DNA of 14,132 nt from a virus (taxonomy: Duplodnaviria; Heunggongvirae; Uroviricota; Caudoviricetes): IMG/VR virus record IMGVR_UViG_2534682295_000006, one strand, 5' to 3'. Both the position numbers and the translations under genes were made by a program. Shown in pieces: positions 2,390-14,132 of this stretch. A model generated the notes under the pieces. That model saw only the letters and a list, made by a program, of their open reading frames with translations. It was not told the origin of the DNA and searched no databases. The stretch's first letter is position 1. Each line of letters opens with the position of its first letter.

Positions 2390-2590
2390 TCACGAGGACT
2401 GAAGTTTCTCGCAATTAAAATTTATCAGTTTTACTTTCTGCTCTCTGGAAACGCCTGCTTCTTTTTTACCTGAGAGCATTTTTTCGCATTCTGATTTCGT
2501 TAGTTTAGATTTTGAATATCTTGTCCAGTTAGTAGGAGTGCCACCTTCCTTTTCAATAGTGGCGGTAATTTTATACATGAACACCTCCAT
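2390..2590 (-). CDS. ydaC: Rac prophage small protein YdaC, 66 aa from MEVFMYK; alternative upstream start at 2650
   Basis: Track ORF 2390..2650. An internal ATG at 2590 gives the N-terminus MEVFMYKITATIEKEGG that I recall for YdaC. The 5' end overlaps the ralR 3' end. Confidence 0.75.
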   Translation of the reverse strand: MEVFMYKITATIEKEGGTPTNWTRYSKSKLTKSECEKMLSGKKEAGVSREQKVKLINFNCEKLQSS

Positions 2591-2765
2591 TATTATTTCC
2601 AGTGGTTCGTTTATTTCATCGTTCGAGTGCTTCTTTTTCACTTCCACCATAACCGGTTCGGGATTCGCATCCGTTACACTTCGCTCGGTAATATCCTGAA
2701 ATGGCTTTCACCGTTACTGATGGACAACCACAAAATGGACATGGTTTAACATTGTCATATCTCAT
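2571..2765 (-). pseudogene. ralR: ralR (lar) restriction-alleviation / type I toxin gene interrupted by an in-frame TGA at 2616-2618 (codon 50)
   Basis: Minus-strand translation from ATG 2765: MRYDNVKPCPFCGCPSVTVKAISGYYRAKCNGCESRTGYGGSEKEALER-stop-NKRTTGNNNGGVHV-TAA. Recalled K-12 Lar is 64 aa with Trp at the stop position. The track has no ORF of 60 aa or more here. Confidence 0.7.
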
Positions 2766-3630: not shown

Positions 3631-6223
3631 TTGCATATTCCTTAGCCCAGCGGGGCAGTGATAACGTCTTAATAGCTGGCCATTCATCGGTATTGAGGCA
3701 GTCAGCCAGGGTTCGCAGATTGCGGTGATATTCCAGCTGACCTGCCAGTTTTGCTTCTTCGCCCATCATGAAAATTTCAACCGGATAACGTCCGCATTCA
3801 ATAGTTGTGCTGGCAACCAGAAAAACGAAAGTTGGCTGCACTCCAAACTGTGCTTCATAACCGTCACTGTAGAATGCATCCTGAACGTGATAGCGGTAGT
3901 CGTAATAAGCGGTTTTGAATCGTTGAATATCCGCCGTAGTTTTCACGTCCATGATCCAGTGAAATTCAGGGATAATTTTGTCCGGACGGCACCGACACAA
4001 AATTGCTGTTTCAGGATCTTCCCAGTAAATTGATGATTCAGCGTGTCCGGCGCTTTCAACAAGCCATTGCCCCAGCGGCAAAGCCATAACGCTCTGATAC
4101 ATGAGTTCAATTTTCCGGCCTTCTTCGGCAGTGATAACCGTTTTTCCTGTGCTTGCGCATTCCCTCAGAAACGCTTTCTCTTCTTCTTTTCCGGAGTTTG
4201 TCCGGCGGTTAAATTCAGGTGCTACGATAAAGCGGTTACTGAATTCTTCCGGCTCAAGTACCCGGCAGTGGAAAGCGGTTCCTAAATCGAGCGTTTTTGT
4301 CTTTGTGGTGTCCACGGGGGCATTTTTACGCCACAAATACAGTGCCGGAGTATCAGCAATGTCATCGAGCTGAGACTTACTGACACCGGGACCCGCGTGG
4401 TAATTCTCATTCGAAATTCCGTAATAAATACCTGGCTCTATGTCTTCTACGATTACGGGATCTGCGACTTCGCCAGTTTCATCACTGCAATCGCGATGCG
4501 GATCGCTGCCAGCATTCTCATTGTGCGGATGTTCAGCGCCTTCCATTTCCTCCGGATCATTTTCCTTAGCTTCAACCTGACTCTCTTCATCGAATGTTTC
4601 CTGGTATGTTGCGTCGCCCATCACCGCACCACAGTCAGGGCAGTTATCCCCGCCAGTCTGGCCGCAGGCATTGCAGGCTATTTCCGGTTCCTGTTGCACT
4701 ACTGGCTCAGGTTGATTCATATCCGGGCTGGTTTTTTCCGTTTCTGGCTGGTTCTGGTACACACAATCGCGAGTCTGGATCCCCTTTACCCATTTCGGAT
4801 CGTTCGGGTCGCTAATTCCGTCAACAAATTCACCACGTGATGCAGCAAGCAATTTATCGGCATCGACAGGATTTTTTGATGGAATGTTTTTCCGGGCTTC
4901 ATGGAGTTCTGCCCGCAGTTCCTGATATTTCGCATCAACAGAATTTACCTGTGACTGAGCATCCAGCGGCTGCGTGTCCTGATGATGTTCAGTTGCGTCC
5001 GGTTCCATTGTTTCAGCCTCTCCCTGTTCAACTGCCGTTGTTCCAGATGGTTGCGGTTTTTCTTCATCATCCTGTTTTCCTTCTTCTGTTACTCGCTGCG
5101 GCATCGGGGCAGAGGAGCGACCGCAGGCAATATCCACGATTTCCGGATCAGGGTTGGCATGATCGGTTTCAGTCAGTACTTTGTTCAGATATTCAGTGAC
5201 GTGCGCGGGGATGACCTCGATCCCAATTGGTGCTTCTTTTACGGACGCAACCACGATGGCGCGGGAATAATCCAGCCCGCCAGGCATGGTGATGAATTTG
5301 TCGCGGAAAACAGAAAAGGGCGGTTTATTTTCAGCGATAATTTCCTCAATGCGTTTAGCGTGTGCCGGATGAAGGTTATAGATGTCCAGATCCATTGAAC
5401 GGGCCAGTACGCCAGTGGCTACGTCGCGCGCCAGTGACGTCAGATCGTGTACGAAACCTTCGCCGCGATCGGTGAGGTTTCCGCCGCCAGCATTAGCACC
5501 GGAAGCCGTGCGAGTGATGTGTGAAACACGATTACCCTTCATCCACTCTTTTGTCAGCAGTCCTCGATCGGTGTAGTCAGCGTTCAGGTATGCTTCGAAA
5601 AAAGCAGTTATCAGTCCCAGGTTTGAATTACCAGGATTAGGGAAAACTTTGTCAGTGTCACGAACCAGTTTGTGGAGTTCGCGAATTTCCAGCGGGTCGA
5701 GCAGGCTGGTTTTGTGGGAAACAGCCAGGGCAGTAACAGCCGGTAGTTCTTCAGCCCGAGCAATGTGTAATGCCTGGAGTCCGTCGCGTGAAACGTGCGT
5801 TACCGGTTTTTCGCTGCCGTGTTGAGCAAGCCAACGAATGGGCAGTTCCTGGCCAGAAATTGGGAGTAGCATATTCTCCTCAATCTCAGTCATGTCTTCG
5901 CCGTTGACGTTGGTATTGCCTTGATAGTGAGCGTTGTCTGGTGCTGCTCCCGGTTTTAGTTCCCATGTCATGGAGTCTTTGCTGAGTTGATAGCGTTCAC
6001 TCCAGGTAAAATCGATCTCACCTTCAGCGGGCAGGTCATTAACGACAGGAAAATTCGTGGCAACAGCTTTAAAATAGCTGCTCAGTTTTTTACCTGACTT
6101 AACGATCAGGTAGTCCAGAGTGGCACAGGTCGATTCAAAATCGTTGCTTGCCCACAGGACGACGTCAGGTTCACCGGATGATTTTTTCGCTTTCCGTAAC
6201 AGGAAGAGTGGTTTTGTGCTCAT
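3623..6223 (-). CDS. recE: RecE exonuclease VIII, 866 aa
   Basis: Track ORF of 866 aa; N-terminus [32 protein letters not shown] and length match recalled K-12 RecE. Immediately upstream of recT. Confidence 0.93.
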
Positions 6224-11394: not shown

Positions 11395-12156
11395 ATGGAG
11401 ACCGTTTTTGACGCACTGAAAGCGATGGGAAAAGCCACGTCGGTAGAACTGGCTACGCGACTTGATATCAGTCGAGAAGAAGTGCTGAACGAGCTGTGGG
11501 AACTGAAAAAGGCTGGCTTCGTTGATAAAAGCGTATACACCTGGCGCGTGGCTGATAACAACGTTCAGCAGGAACAGCCAGCGCCGGCAGAGCTGCCGGA
11601 AGAAACCACCATGGCAACAGTAGCGAAAATCTCAGAGTGCGATTTAACCGCGACGATTGAACAACGTGGCCCACAAACGGCGGATGAGTTGGCTACATTG
11701 TTCGGTACCACATCACGCAAAGTAGCTTCAACGCTGGCAATGGCTATCAGCAAAGGACGCCTGATTCGCGTAAACCAGAACGGTAAATTTCGTTACTGCA
11801 TACCGGGCGATAATTTACCAGCAGAGCCGAAAGCAGCATCGGTAGCGGAAACTGATGGTAAGGCCTTTCCTCAGCCCACAGGTGTTGCGTTACCAGTACA
11901 GGAGGCTGCAACACAGGAAGATATTAAAACAGAAACGGTGGCGGACATTGTGCAGTCGCTGCCATCGTTTACTGAAACGCGAGCGGATGACCTGGTTTTA
12001 CCATCGCTGCATATGGCAAACCGCGAACTGCGTCGGGCGAAAAATCATGTCCAGAAGTGGGAGCGAGTCTGCGCCGCGCTGCGGGAGCTGAACAAGCACC
12101 GGGATATTGTTCGACAGATTTTCGATTCCTCCAGTCGTATTGTGTCGGAAAAGTGA
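11395..12156 (+). CDS. ydaW: YdaW-like protein with two tandem winged-helix-like segments, apparently full length at 253 aa
   Basis: Shine-Dalgarno GGGAGG 11381-11386 precedes ATG 11395. The track ORF starts at 11344, inside ydaV. K-12 ydaW is a truncated pseudogene as I recall. Confidence 0.75.
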
Positions 12157-12171
12157 TTGCCGGAGGCACCT

Positions 12172-12594
12172 ATGGCAAAAGTATTTACACCAGAAGAGCG
12201 GGAAAAAATTAAAGGGCAGGTTGTTGAACTTGTACGTCTGAGCGGTCGCGAGACGTTACGGGCTCTGGAGGCTAAAACCGGTGCATCAAGGTATTACATA
12301 AGCACTCTCGCCAGAGAACTGGTCGCCAGTGGTGATGTTTACAATTCAGGCTACGGATTATTCCCGTCTGAGCAGGCGCGTAAAGACTGGCAAAACGCCC
12401 GCAAAAAACTATCAAGGGCAAAGGTGAAGAAACCGGTTGTGGTTGATCCGGATCTTATCTGGTCATTACCAGACGGAGAAATACGCCGCTACGACAGGCG
12501 TCTGAACATAATCTGTAGCGAGTGCCGGAAGAGCGAAGCTATGCAGCGTGTACTGGCTTTCTATCAGGGTAATTTTCAGAAGGTGCTGTTGTGA
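12172..12594 (+). CDS. Hypothetical phage protein, 140 aa, possible HTH near the N-terminus
   Basis: Shine-Dalgarno GGAGG 12162-12166 precedes ATG 12172 (MAKVFTPEEREKIKG). The track ORF uses a TTG at 12157. Not recognised. Confidence 0.65.
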   Translation: MAKVFTPEEREKIKGQVVELVRLSGRETLRALEAKTGASRYYISTLARELVASGDVYNSGYGLFPSEQARKDWQNARKKLSRAKVKKPVVVDPDLIWSLPDGEIRRYDRRLNIICSECRKSEAMQRVLAFYQGNFQKVLL

Positions 12595-12699
12595 GCCAAA
12601 TTAACAATCGGAACTTCGTGAAGAGAAAGCATAATCCAAATCTGAATAATTAAGTTCAGCACTGTAAATAAAATTTAATCCTTAACTGGAGGTATATTT

Positions 12700-12912
12700 A
12701 TGTTAAATACACAGAAAGCCATTAATGCGGAAAAATATAACGAGTGGGCAAGAAAATTCTCTGAGCAGATTTTTAAAATTACTGGCGATGAGAATGCGGC
12801 AAAAAATGAATTAGAACCGTGGACGCCTGAAGGAGCCGACCCAAATTATTGCTGGAGGGAGGTTGATCCAGTTGATGCTGCAAATGAAGCTATGAGTTAT
12901 CACAACGATTAA
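12700..12912 (+). CDS. Hypothetical small acidic protein, 70 aa, in an AT-richer segment
   Basis: Shine-Dalgarno GGAGG 12687-12691 precedes ATG 12700. 14 Asp/Glu versus 7 Lys/Arg. Hand-counted GC is about 40 percent (85 of 213 nt). Confidence 0.6.
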   Translation: MLNTQKAINAEKYNEWARKFSEQIFKITGDENAAKNELEPWTPEGADPNYCWREVDPVDAANEAMSYHND

Positions 12913-12921
12913 TGTCAGGAG

Positions 12922-12937
12922 GCCGCCCGAAAGGGCG
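12922..12937 (+). terminator. Short GC stem-loop CCGCCC-GAAA-GGGCGG after the 70-aa gene
   Basis: 6-bp GC stem with GAAA tetraloop read directly. The downstream U-tract is weak (UAAUGAAUGG), so terminator function is uncertain. Confidence 0.3.
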
Positions 12938-13024
12938 GTAATGAATGGTCACATTATTTAGAAAAAATATCCGCGAAAGAGTAGAACAACAGAATTTCTG
13001 TTTCTCATTCTGTTTATCGTGTTG

Positions 13025-13162
13025 ATGATACCGATATCCCCGTTAATCCTAGTCTGGATAATCGGAAAAATAATTGAGCCAGTTATTGAATTGTATAACG
13101 ACGTGGTATGGGCGTCATTCAACACACTGCACAATAAAATTAATCCGTATAAGGAAAACTGA
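13025..13162 (+). CDS. Candidate small hydrophobic protein of about 45 aa (MIPISPLILVWIIGKIIEPVIELYNDVVWASFNTLHNKINPYKEN)
   Basis: Manual translation. The frame is open from 12962 and encodes FLFLILFIVL before the ATG, so GTG 13019 or TTG 13022 are alternative starts. Stop overlaps the next ATG (TGATATG). Confidence 0.35.
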   Translation: MIPISPLILVWIIGKIIEPVIELYNDVVWASFNTLHNKINPYKEN

Positions 13163-13163
13163 T

Positions 13164-13427
13164 ATGGCAACTTTGACAAAAAAAGAACGGGCATGGTTGA
13201 ACGAATTACAGGAAGTTCTTGATCGCTGTCCATCACCGAAAAAAATTGGCTTTTACACCATTGGCGATAAAAGCATTTACCTGTATGACCTACGCCGCAT
13301 GGATGAAATCATGGAGGCTCTTGATAATCGTTCGTCGATGGATTGGTGTGTTGCTGTTCATGATATGAATGCAGGGTTTGATGAAAAGATTTTGTTCCCC
13401 TCATCAGTTGAAAGCACTGCGGGTTAA
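13164..13427 (+). CDS. Hypothetical phage protein, 87 aa (MATLTKKERAWLNELQEVLDRCPSPKK...)
   Basis: Shine-Dalgarno AAGGAAAA 13151-13158 precedes ATG 13164. The track ORF 13074..13427 is the same frame extended upstream. Not recognised. Confidence 0.65.
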   Translation: MATLTKKERAWLNELQEVLDRCPSPKKIGFYTIGDKSIYLYDLRRMDEIMEALDNRSSMDWCVAVHDMNAGFDEKILFPSSVESTAG

Positions 13428-13437
13428 GGAGTAACAC

Positions 13438-13599
13438 ATGACCACTATTACCAAAGAACGTATTGAATTGTTCATTAAAAATCCGGTTGAAAACGGGCTT
13501 ACCCGTGGTGAACAAATGGAACTGGCACGGATTGCGCTGGCATCGCTGGAAGCAGAGCCAGTTGGTGATTTTTATGAATACAAACCGGATGACTGGTAG
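13438..13599 (+). CDS. Hypothetical 53-aa ORF ending at a TAG that is in frame with the next ORF
   Basis: Shine-Dalgarno AGGAG 13427-13431 precedes ATG 13438: MTTITKERIELFIKNPVENGLTRGEQMELARIALASLEAEPVGDFYEYKPDDW. Under 60 aa, so absent from the track. Confidence 0.55.
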   Translation: MTTITKERIELFIKNPVENGLTRGEQMELARIALASLEAEPVGDFYEYKPDDW

Positions 13600-13665
13600 C
13601 AGCGTTCGGCTGGAGATAAAGCGCCAAAATGGACGCCACCCTATGCCGTTTTTCCAGCGCCCGTA

Positions 13666-13923
13666 GTGCCGGAAGAAATGGATTTGCTTACATGCCATCT
13701 CGATGGTGTAACTGAAACATATGCTGAGGGATGGAACGCTTGCCGCGCTGCCCTGCTTCAGGGCAAAGGGGAGCCCGGGAAACAAGTTCGCGAATTGACA
13801 ATGCTGGTTAAACAATTGGTTAGTCAACTGAAGAAAGCGAAACCGGGCTGCAAATTGCCGGATAAAGTGATGGACTACCTGGAGCGAAGCGGACTTATAA
13901 GCGTGGAGGATGTTTCACGATGA
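13666..13923 (+). CDS. Hypothetical ORF in the same frame as 13438..13599, with a weak own start (GTG 13666 or ATG 13678)
   Basis: Track ORF. No stop codon between the TAG at 13597-13599 and 13666; no convincing Shine-Dalgarno. Confidence 0.45.
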   Translation: MPEEMDLLTCHLDGVTETYAEGWNACRAALLQGKGEPGKQVRELTMLVKQLVSQLKKAKPGCKLPDKVMDYLERSGLISVEDVSR

Positions 13924-14003
13924 CCTGGCCTGAAGCATTCACAACGGTAGGAATTGCGATGGCGGTGGCGCTGGTTGTGTATTCGATTTGCCGCTGGGGA
14001 TAA
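13920..14003 (+). CDS. Candidate 27-aa single-helix hydrophobic peptide (MTWPEAFTTVGIAMAVALVVYSICRWG)
   Basis: Manual translation. Its ATG overlaps the upstream stop (ATGA). One predicted transmembrane-like stretch. Too short to call confidently. Confidence 0.3.
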   Translation: MTWPEAFTTVGIAMAVALVVYSICRWG

Positions 14004-14132
14004 AAACGGTTTGCGGGAAAAGGATAGTTAAGTAGAATTGCTGCGGGTGCTTGAGGCTATCTGCCTCGGGCATGCCACCGTAAGGCAGACAGAGAAAAGC
14101 CCCAGTTAACATTACGCGTCCTGCAAGACGCC

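Follow-up and report, generated by a model that had tools for sequence, protein, structure and literature searches.

ORF70, a small acidic gene of lambdoid prophages, is an optional occupant of a widespread boundary element between early genes

In the moron concept of Hendrix and Juhala, a gene is present or absent between conserved flanks; classic morons come with a promoter and a terminator of their own, and expression from the prophage is common. The exo-xis and nin regions of lambda and the Stx phages hold another kind of small gene (orf60a, orf61, orf63, orf73, ea8.5, and ea22), which are short, non-essential, and early, and which lie in variable regions. The small genes of the exo-xis region are early-expressed modulators that alter lysogenisation and induction (PMC8614690, PMC3824215). 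More broadly, the accessory regions of phages contain non-essential, horizontally exchanged genes, and are enriched for counter-defence or host-modifying genes (bioRxiv 10.1101/2023.04.06.535777). The gene that we describe here, ORF70, belongs to such a region and encodes a protein of 70 amino acids.

ORF70 is found in a 14,132-nucleotide stretch of viral DNA that we analysed as a whole (the window). Its sequence matches, with 100% identity, a Rac-type lambdoid prophage that lies beside ttcA in many EHEC genomes (O157:H7, O111, O121, and others). The prophage begins with intR, xisR, ralR, recT, recE, kilR, and sieB. These are followed by a cI-like repressor, a cro-like gene, ydaT, a replication initiator, ydaV, DUF1627, and DUF977 (Ren-like), and then by ORF70, a frameshifted DUF4014 gene, and three small hypothetical genes. 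In this prophage, ORF70 is part of the rightward early operon and comes after the replication genes. Table 1 lists the features that we will discuss.

Table 1. Positions of ORF70, its junction, and other features in the window and in related loci
Feature	Sequence	Position	Strand	Basis or remark
ralR	window	2394–2572	+	toxin-antitoxin pair, type I, with RalA
RalA	window	about 2616–2765	-	full-length Rfam match, 225 bits; adjoins annotated ralR
DUF977 / Ren-like gene, upstream flank	window	12172–12594	+	Pfam DUF977, 5e-28; phrog_142, 1.5e-45; outside cassette
AT-rich island	window	~12595–13677		41% GC
Conserved 5' leader	window	12633–12699	+	similarity to ArgO145, P1-like phage-plasmid, and Qin-type prophage begins here; sequence further upstream differs
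Inverted repeat in leader	window	12642–12646 and 12655–12659		CTGAA / TTCAG
Shine-Dalgarno sequence in leader	window	12688–12692	+	GGAGG, 7 nt 5' of ATG
ORF70 (ATG to TAA), optional cargo of junction	window	12700–12912	+	translation, phrog_4659, dN/dS, AlphaFold
Candidate Shine-Dalgarno sequence for gene after junction	window	12917–12922	+	AGGAGG, directly 5' of hairpin
GC hairpin, 3' junction boundary	window	12922–12939	+	GCCGCCC-GAAA-GGGCGGT; fold z = -3.7
DUF4014 pseudogene, follows junction here	window	12945–13162	+	RefSeq "DUF4014 family protein, frameshifted"
53-aa ORF	window	13438–13599		matches N-terminal part of phrog_660 (3–60)
81-aa ORF	window	13678–13923		matches C-terminal part of phrog_660 (130–192)
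Three-gene island	L001 (same prophage)	15856–19355		just past right end of window; GC 32–37%
Conserved junction (examples)	L012	3296–3382		
	L011	6230–6313		
DUF7167 gene	L012	3383–3565		60 aa
	L002 (ArgO145)	4314–4496		
phrog_519 gene	L012	3558–3734		58 aa
	L002 (ArgO145)	4489–4665		
phrog_1621 copies	L010	4606–4962		
	L009	4606–4965		
	L002 (ArgO145)	3661–4017		
	L011	5871–6227		
	L012	2876–3289		
ORF70 homologue and neighbours, Salmonella	L210	6115–7447		

Several of the other genes of this prophage deserve a comment. RalR and RalA form a type I toxin-antitoxin pair. Beyond the window's right end there is a very AT-rich island of three genes, annotated as a DNA cytosine methyltransferase, an O-methyltransferase, and an ATP-binding protein; this may be a defence or modification moron. 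Within the window, downstream of ORF70, two ORFs of 53 and 81 amino acids match different parts of phrog_660 and look like what is left of one disrupted gene. The accessory genes that follow ORF70 are decaying, and the prophage itself is probably decaying as well. (In strain THO-006, an intact DUF4014 gene follows the same junction.) Because DUF4014 is frameshifted and two ORFs look like the fragments of one gene, the window's copy of ORF70 may be inactive.

The original prediction, which was made from the sequence of the window, described a product of 70 residues with 14 acidic residues against 7 basic ones. Translation and a residue count agree with this (5 Asp and 9 Glu versus 5 Lys and 2 Arg). 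The product (MLNTQKAINAEKYNEWARKFSEQIFKITGDENAAKNELEPWTPEGADPNYCWREVDPVDAANEAMSYHND) has a pI of 4.51 and a net charge of about -7; its Asp/Glu content is 20%, and its C-terminal half has a net charge of -9. The other frames contain no overlapping ORF of 40 or more amino acids. By net charge per residue (-0.10), ORF70 nominally leads the prophage's 41 coding sequences in acidity, but its margin over the runner-up (the 53-aa neighbour, at -0.094) is slight. The acidity of ORF70 is real but modest.

The gene's GC content was given as about 40 percent by hand count, and we computed 39.9%, versus 46.4% for the window. It was also thought to be lower than that of the flanking genes. This is true of the five upstream genes (49–54%), but the genes downstream of ORF70 are equally AT-rich (35–44%), and the AT-rich island that had been proposed, although its GC content is indeed low, is wider than ORF70 alone (Table 1). 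Nor is the composition of ORF70 extreme: 16.5% of all 213-nt segments are as AT-rich, and ORF70 has the 9th lowest GC content among the 41 coding sequences. The strong Shine-Dalgarno sequence that had been noticed is present, within an AT-rich leader.

ORF70 is a real gene that selection maintains, and it encodes a compact three-helix protein. Its product is in RefSeq as WP_000935420.1, annotated as "hypothetical protein," and the exact sequence is present on about 1000 public contigs. Over residues 1–70, it matches positions 1–70 of the 70-position profile of phrog_4659 (E = 3.4e-50), whose function is unknown. Copies from other loci were intact in 40 of 40 cases. Among 15 distinct DNA alleles, the median pairwise dN/dS was about 0.16, and the numbers of variable sites at the first, second, and third codon positions were 8, 10, and 23. 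Because all of these copies are intact, dN/dS is low, and the changes are biased towards third positions, ORF70 is more than a chance ORF. And since it is under purifying selection, it must do something for the phage.

A word-indexed search with ORF70 found 121 clusters of proteins, all of them from Escherichia or Shigella, at least about 71% identical to ORF70, and none of them named. Against 1.84 billion representatives, an exhaustive HMM search contributed just three truly divergent short proteins. (Three giant proteins, P0121 with 2862 amino acids, P0126, and P0130, were rejected as relatives: they are artefacts of low-complexity acidic or Trp/Thr-rich repeats.) By iterating from the divergent members, we reached proteins of 61–97 amino acids from Klebsiella, Salmonella, and Serratia, at 34–54% identity. 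These homologues are all annotated as "hypothetical" and have no Pfam domain. We found the family solely in prophages of Enterobacterales, and a search of species-representative genomes found no relatives. Within a collection of cultured phages, ORF70 is in only 8 records, all with STEC hosts. It is present in 619–620 of 5426 complete genomes of E. coli (11%), with up to 5 copies each, and it occurs in prophages of EHEC O157, O111, and O145 and in Stx2a-converting phages.

We found no match for ORF70 in Pfam, NCBIfam, PADLOC, or the sequences in the PDB, whether we searched with the single protein or with the family profile. For the defence HMMs of PADLOC, there were 0 families at E values of up to 1. 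By these searches, ORF70 has no enzymatic, DNA-binding, or defence signature. Searching the literature with its accession, with peptide strings, and with the PHROG identifier found nothing, and sequence strings from ORF70 are absent from the 39 supplementary files of the counter-defence screen of Silas et al. The 58-aa protein phrog_519 looks similar by eye (KYN..EW..PVEA), so it was considered as a paralogue, but hhalign gives a probability of 0.3%. The original prediction would have been refuted by a clear match to a protein whose known function is unrelated, and none turned up. The family is catalogued but functionally undescribed, and ORF70 is an ordinary small early accessory gene of lambdoid phages.

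A structure prediction and a structural search had been suggested as checks. AlphaFold2 gave a confident answer, with the same compact three-helix fold from two different alignments (mean pLDDT of 84.4 and 86.7; pTM of 0.75), but the model had no significant match (Foldseek's best E values were 1.6 against the PDB and 0.43 against BFVD). This fold comparison was weak and does not amount to a clean negative. The predicted helices are at residues 2–28, 31–38, and 57–66, with a Trp/Pro-rich loop between. In an alignment of 20 representatives, W16, F20, T28, E37, W41, P57, and A61 are invariant, and Y13, W52, D56, V58, and A60 are nearly so. Most of the conserved positions are core aromatics or helix caps; D56 is at a helix N-cap.

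The most frequent top structural neighbour of the ORF70 models was the sigma-2 domain of ECF sigma factors, with scores below significance. So we considered that ORF70 might target RNA polymerase, either by mimicking sigma-2 at the beta-prime clamp helices or by using the DPVDAA at the start of a helix to bind in the secondary channel, as TraR, DksA, and Orf73 do. The hallmarks of those secondary-channel binders are DxxDxA, a C4 zinc-binding motif, and ExxRK (PMC8614690). The most conserved segment of ORF70, D56-P-V-D59-A-A61, fits DxxDxA, and DPVDAA is found in 12 of 16 representatives, but it is at helix 3 and not at the first helix. D-P-x-D is also a generic helix N-capping box, and DxxDxA appears in 3.7% of shuffles of ORF70. 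No family member has a CxxC or C4 zinc site (there are 0–2 cysteines in total), and ExxRK is found in just 3 of 16 members, at non-equivalent positions. We therefore rejected membership in the TraR/DksA family: there is no zinc site, and the motif can be explained as a capping box.

The similarity to sigma-2 fares no better. The structural scores (Z of at most 5.4) are level with those of unrelated helical proteins; the helices of ORF70, with lengths of 27, 8, and 10 residues, are unlike those of the ECF sigma-2 domain; and the family has no match to a PDB profile. Neither Sigma70_r2 (PF04542) nor zf-dskA_traR matched any of 16 members at E values of up to 5, and the NCBIfam sigma model scored ORF70 at 13 bits, versus a cut-off of 248. 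The resemblance recurs, but it is sub-threshold and has no sequence signal, so we do not consider ORF70 to be a homologue of ECF sigma-2. Overall, we think it quite improbable that RNA polymerase is the target.

The original prediction emphasised that small acidic phage proteins are frequently DNA mimics or inhibitors of host defence. As a DNA mimic or anti-restriction protein, ORF70 would use an array of surface carboxylates to block DNA-binding defence enzymes, as Ocr and ArdA do. ORF70 resembles those proteins in being small, acidic (pI 4.5), and encoded on a mobile element, in a variable accessory region. It also passes loose filters for DNA mimics (under 200 amino acids and at least 10 Asp/Glu), but these filters are non-specific, and the criteria also demand a DNA-like spatial array of charges (PMC3902945). 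In Ocr, 34 of 116 residues are acidic (29%), and about 15 acidic positions are conserved (PMC3439906). ORF70's charge density is lower, and its acidity is not conserved: across 16 representatives of the family, the net charge ranges from -7 to +2 and the pI from 4.5 to 8.9 (individual members have pIs of 8.9, 6.2, 6.0, and 5.9). E37 is the sole invariant acidic residue, with D56 nearly so. The predicted structure does not have the dimeric, elongated, DNA-like shape of Ocr or ArdA and has no structural match, and Ocr, ArdA, Arn, DinI, and UGI were all absent from the fold-search matches. Finally, two proteins that often follow the same junction, DUF7167 and phrog_519, have two to three times its acidity per residue. 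Because acidity is not a trait of the family, few acidic residues are conserved, and these neighbours are more acidic, DNA mimicry is disfavoured, and we consider it very unlikely.

The genes for DUF7167 and phrog_519 follow this junction in many other phages. The DUF7167 protein is 35% Asp/Glu, with a pI of 4.05 and a net charge of -0.27 per residue; for the phrog_519 protein, the values are 28%, 4.05, and -0.21. Judging by charge alone, these would be better candidates for DNA mimics than ORF70 is.

ORF70 is an optional occupant of a widespread boundary element between genes. We aligned the window with the corresponding regions of the Stx2a phage ArgO145, a P1-like phage-plasmid, a Qin-type prophage of O157, and a second Rac-type prophage. 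In these alignments, similarity sets in about 67 nt ahead of the ATG and stops 1–3 nt past a hairpin (at 12940 in the window), and the flanks beyond are unrelated. The hairpin is invariant across these contexts, while the coding sequence of ORF70 differs by 8–10%. The original prediction had noticed this GC stem-loop just after ORF70. It is real, with six G-C pairs, one G-U pair, and a GAAA loop, and it is more stable than shuffled sequences (z = -3.7), but it ends at 12939 instead of 12937.

When we searched viral contigs for the hairpin, we found at least 120 loci, and 90 of 127 instances lacked ORF70. The empty site consists of the leader (ending with AATCCTTAACCGGAGG), a 22-nt filler (GATTTCTGCACCCTCAGAACA), TCAGGAGG, and the hairpin. 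In the filled site, the 213 nt of ORF70 are in place of the filler, and filled and empty junctions align exactly. Two examples of the junction, with its invariant hairpin GCCGCCCGAAAGGGCGG, are included in Table 1; in the empty form, GGAGGG in the leader can pair with CCCTC in the filler. Among 142 non-identical junctions, 63 are filled and 79 are empty, with 10 classes of upstream flanks and 12 classes of downstream flanks. The major flank classes hold both states of the junction (for instance, upstream class 0 has 39 filled and 36 empty junctions). We considered that the empty site might be a simple deletion of ORF70, but the filler has no clear similarity to the ends of ORF70, so ORF70 and the filler are best regarded as alternative inserts. 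In complete genomes of E. coli, the empty junction, which is unannotated, is present in 1997 of 5426 (37%), as compared to 619 with the filled junction, and roughly 40–50% of the genomes have the junction in one form or the other.

Because the hairpin and the leader are widespread without ORF70, the stem-loop is not ORF70's own but belongs to the boundary element. In particular, it is not an intrinsic terminator for ORF70: no run of T follows the stem, a consensus scan for terminators did not call it, and it is also upstream of many genes in loci that lack ORF70. A known RNA family does not account for the junction either, as Rfam had no matches there, whether in the window (at the gathering threshold) or in three related loci (at E values of up to 1). 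Pas sRNAs show no more than a loose synteny with DUF1627, within 10 kb of it, and do not lie at the junction.

Instead, the hairpin may affect the translation of the next gene. Each of the 94 distinct junctions that we examined has CAGGAGG, or a sequence close to it, 5' of the stem (exactly CAGGAGG in 76), and in 69 of 76 cases, the next gene's start codon lies 6–9 nt beyond the stem. Folding of the hairpin would take about 18 nt out of the spacing of the Shine-Dalgarno sequence and the start codon, much as in the split ribosome-binding sites of genes 38 and 25 of phage T4. In both, a stable hairpin (a predicted one here) separates a strong Shine-Dalgarno sequence from the start of the gene. 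Unlike in T4, the 3' arm of the hairpin or another sequence could be the real ribosome-binding site, and the element is also a recombination boundary before many unrelated downstream genes. The junction element is a modest but genuine side-finding.

A bolder proposal would combine these observations: ORF70 would be an early protein with a new fold that disables a host factor, such as RNA polymerase or an immunity protein, and it would be one of several alternative cargoes of a previously undescribed plug-in junction, whose conserved leader and invariant hairpin would bring a Shine-Dalgarno sequence close to the start codon of any gene that comes next. The junction would serve as both a recombination adaptor, by which unrelated temperate phages swap accessory genes, and a portable signal for translation initiation. 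We consider this whole scenario to be unlikely, albeit less so than the idea that ORF70 targets RNA polymerase as a sigma-2 mimic or a secondary-channel binder.

Conversely, the protein might be irrelevant, and ORF70 might be a selfish or neutral filler that acts only on the translation or stability of the operon's mRNA at the junction. This would fit with the excess of empty junctions (1997 genomes versus 619) and with the leader and the hairpin being at least as well conserved as ORF70. However, it seems inconsistent with purifying selection on the amino acid sequence (dN/dS of 0.16, with mostly third-position changes), with all copies being intact, with 34–50% identity across Escherichia, Klebsiella, Salmonella, and Serratia, and with the confident prediction of a fold. 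We see very little chance that ORF70 is just filler.

The contexts of ORF70 vary. In Rac- and Qin-type prophages of E. coli and in lambdoid prophages of Klebsiella, it is read rightward, between the replication genes and NinB/NinG/Q or RusA/Q. In ArgO145 and in the Salmonella and Serratia phages, it is read leftward, between kil/recT/exo and xis/int. It is also found within a run of small early genes in a different type of phage, within an integrase/AlpA/PerC element, and within a P1-like phage-plasmid that carries phd/doc. Every one of these contexts is the early accessory region of a temperate element. No neighbouring gene is conserved across all of them. The candidate for a conserved partner was the 118-aa phrog_1621, which is the commonest gene directly upstream of the junction and takes the position of DUF977 in other ORF70 contexts, but it is absent from this window and from the Klebsiella, Salmonella, and Serratia contexts. 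(phrog_1621 has a weak signal for a TFIIB-type Zn-ribbon and a basic C-terminal tail.) In the Salmonella locus in Table 1, the ORF70 homologue belongs to the exo-xis region and comes shortly before xis/int. An MT-A70 methyltransferase and a 74-aa gene flank it on one side, a zf-dskA_traR (TraR/Orf73-like) gene flanks it on the other, and DUF1317 adjoins.

How is ORF70 expressed? A consensus scan of the + strand from 12100 to 14132 found no sigma-70-like promoter, so we rejected the idea that ORF70 has a promoter of its own. This bears on whether ORF70 might be a prophage defence or superinfection-exclusion factor, which would shield the lysogen from other phages. Defence genes are frequent in the accessory regions of prophages, and the same prophage has sieB, ralR/RalA, and the Ren-like DUF977 gene. 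But with no promoter detected and with the early operon under the control of the repressor, expression in the lysogen seems unlikely. Furthermore, PADLOC had no match, and a helical protein of 70 amino acids with no conserved partner gene would be atypical of known defence systems. A defence role thus seems highly improbable.

Our preferred explanation, in which our confidence is about even, is that ORF70 is an optional early accessory cassette whose product binds a host or phage protein. Temperate phages of Enterobacterales carry ORF70 as an optional cassette, and the conserved intergenic junction around it recurs between many pairs of genes in lambdoid prophages, Stx2a phages, and P1-like phage-plasmids. 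With neither a promoter nor a terminator of its own, ORF70 is read within delayed-early operons: rightward after the replication genes, as here, or leftward between the recombination genes and xis/int, as in the Stx2a, Salmonella, and Serratia phages. Because it lies within early operons and lacks these signals, we infer that ORF70 is made during lytic growth or induction and not in the repressed lysogen. The product would bind and modulate a protein of the host or of a rival phage, for host takeover, counter-defence, or developmental tuning. A role in binding protein is our default, because we found no catalytic, DNA-binding, or membrane signature. ORF70 is most likely a non-enzymatic protein binder that acts early in lytic growth, and a broader role in counter-defence or host takeover is compatible with the type of locus that it occupies.

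Alternatively, instead of countering host immunity, ORF70 could tune the decision between lysis and lysogeny or how efficiently the prophage is induced. In ArgO145, Salmonella, and Serratia, ORF70 is exo-xis/int-proximal, near DUF1317 and TraR-like genes, and genes of the exo-xis region do alter lysogenisation and induction (PMC3824215, PMC8614690). However, ORF70 is not related in sequence to any of the named exo-xis proteins (the PHROG and Pfam assignments differ), and a modelling paper on the exo-xis region does not include the sequence of ORF70. Also, in E. coli and Klebsiella, ORF70 is in a rightward, nin-type region instead. We view such tuning as a minor possibility, on a par with the plug-in scenario above, but it overlaps with our preferred explanation and is hard to separate from it.

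ORF70 is common in pathogenic E. coli (11% of complete genomes). If the binding protein that we prefer proves to be a true factor for counter-defence or host takeover, it would add a small inhibitor with a new fold to the toolbox, and it could bear on the induction of Stx prophages. The junction may be of wider interest than the protein: it is a very widespread example of lambdoid phages, P1-like plasmids, and satellites swapping single accessory genes at a short conserved boundary.

Among described families, only phrog_4659 (WP_000935420.1) is the same as ORF70, and it has no described function, structure, or name. Like a moron, ORF70 is present or absent between conserved flanks, and its GC content is below that of the genes upstream (39.9% versus 49–54%), but unlike the classic morons, it has neither a promoter nor an intrinsic terminator of its own, as judged by consensus scans. 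The small genes of the exo-xis and nin regions offer another comparison. ORF70 has no detectable sequence relationship to them and is absent from lambda, but its homologues occupy the same regions, from the recombination genes to xis/int or from the replication genes to Q.
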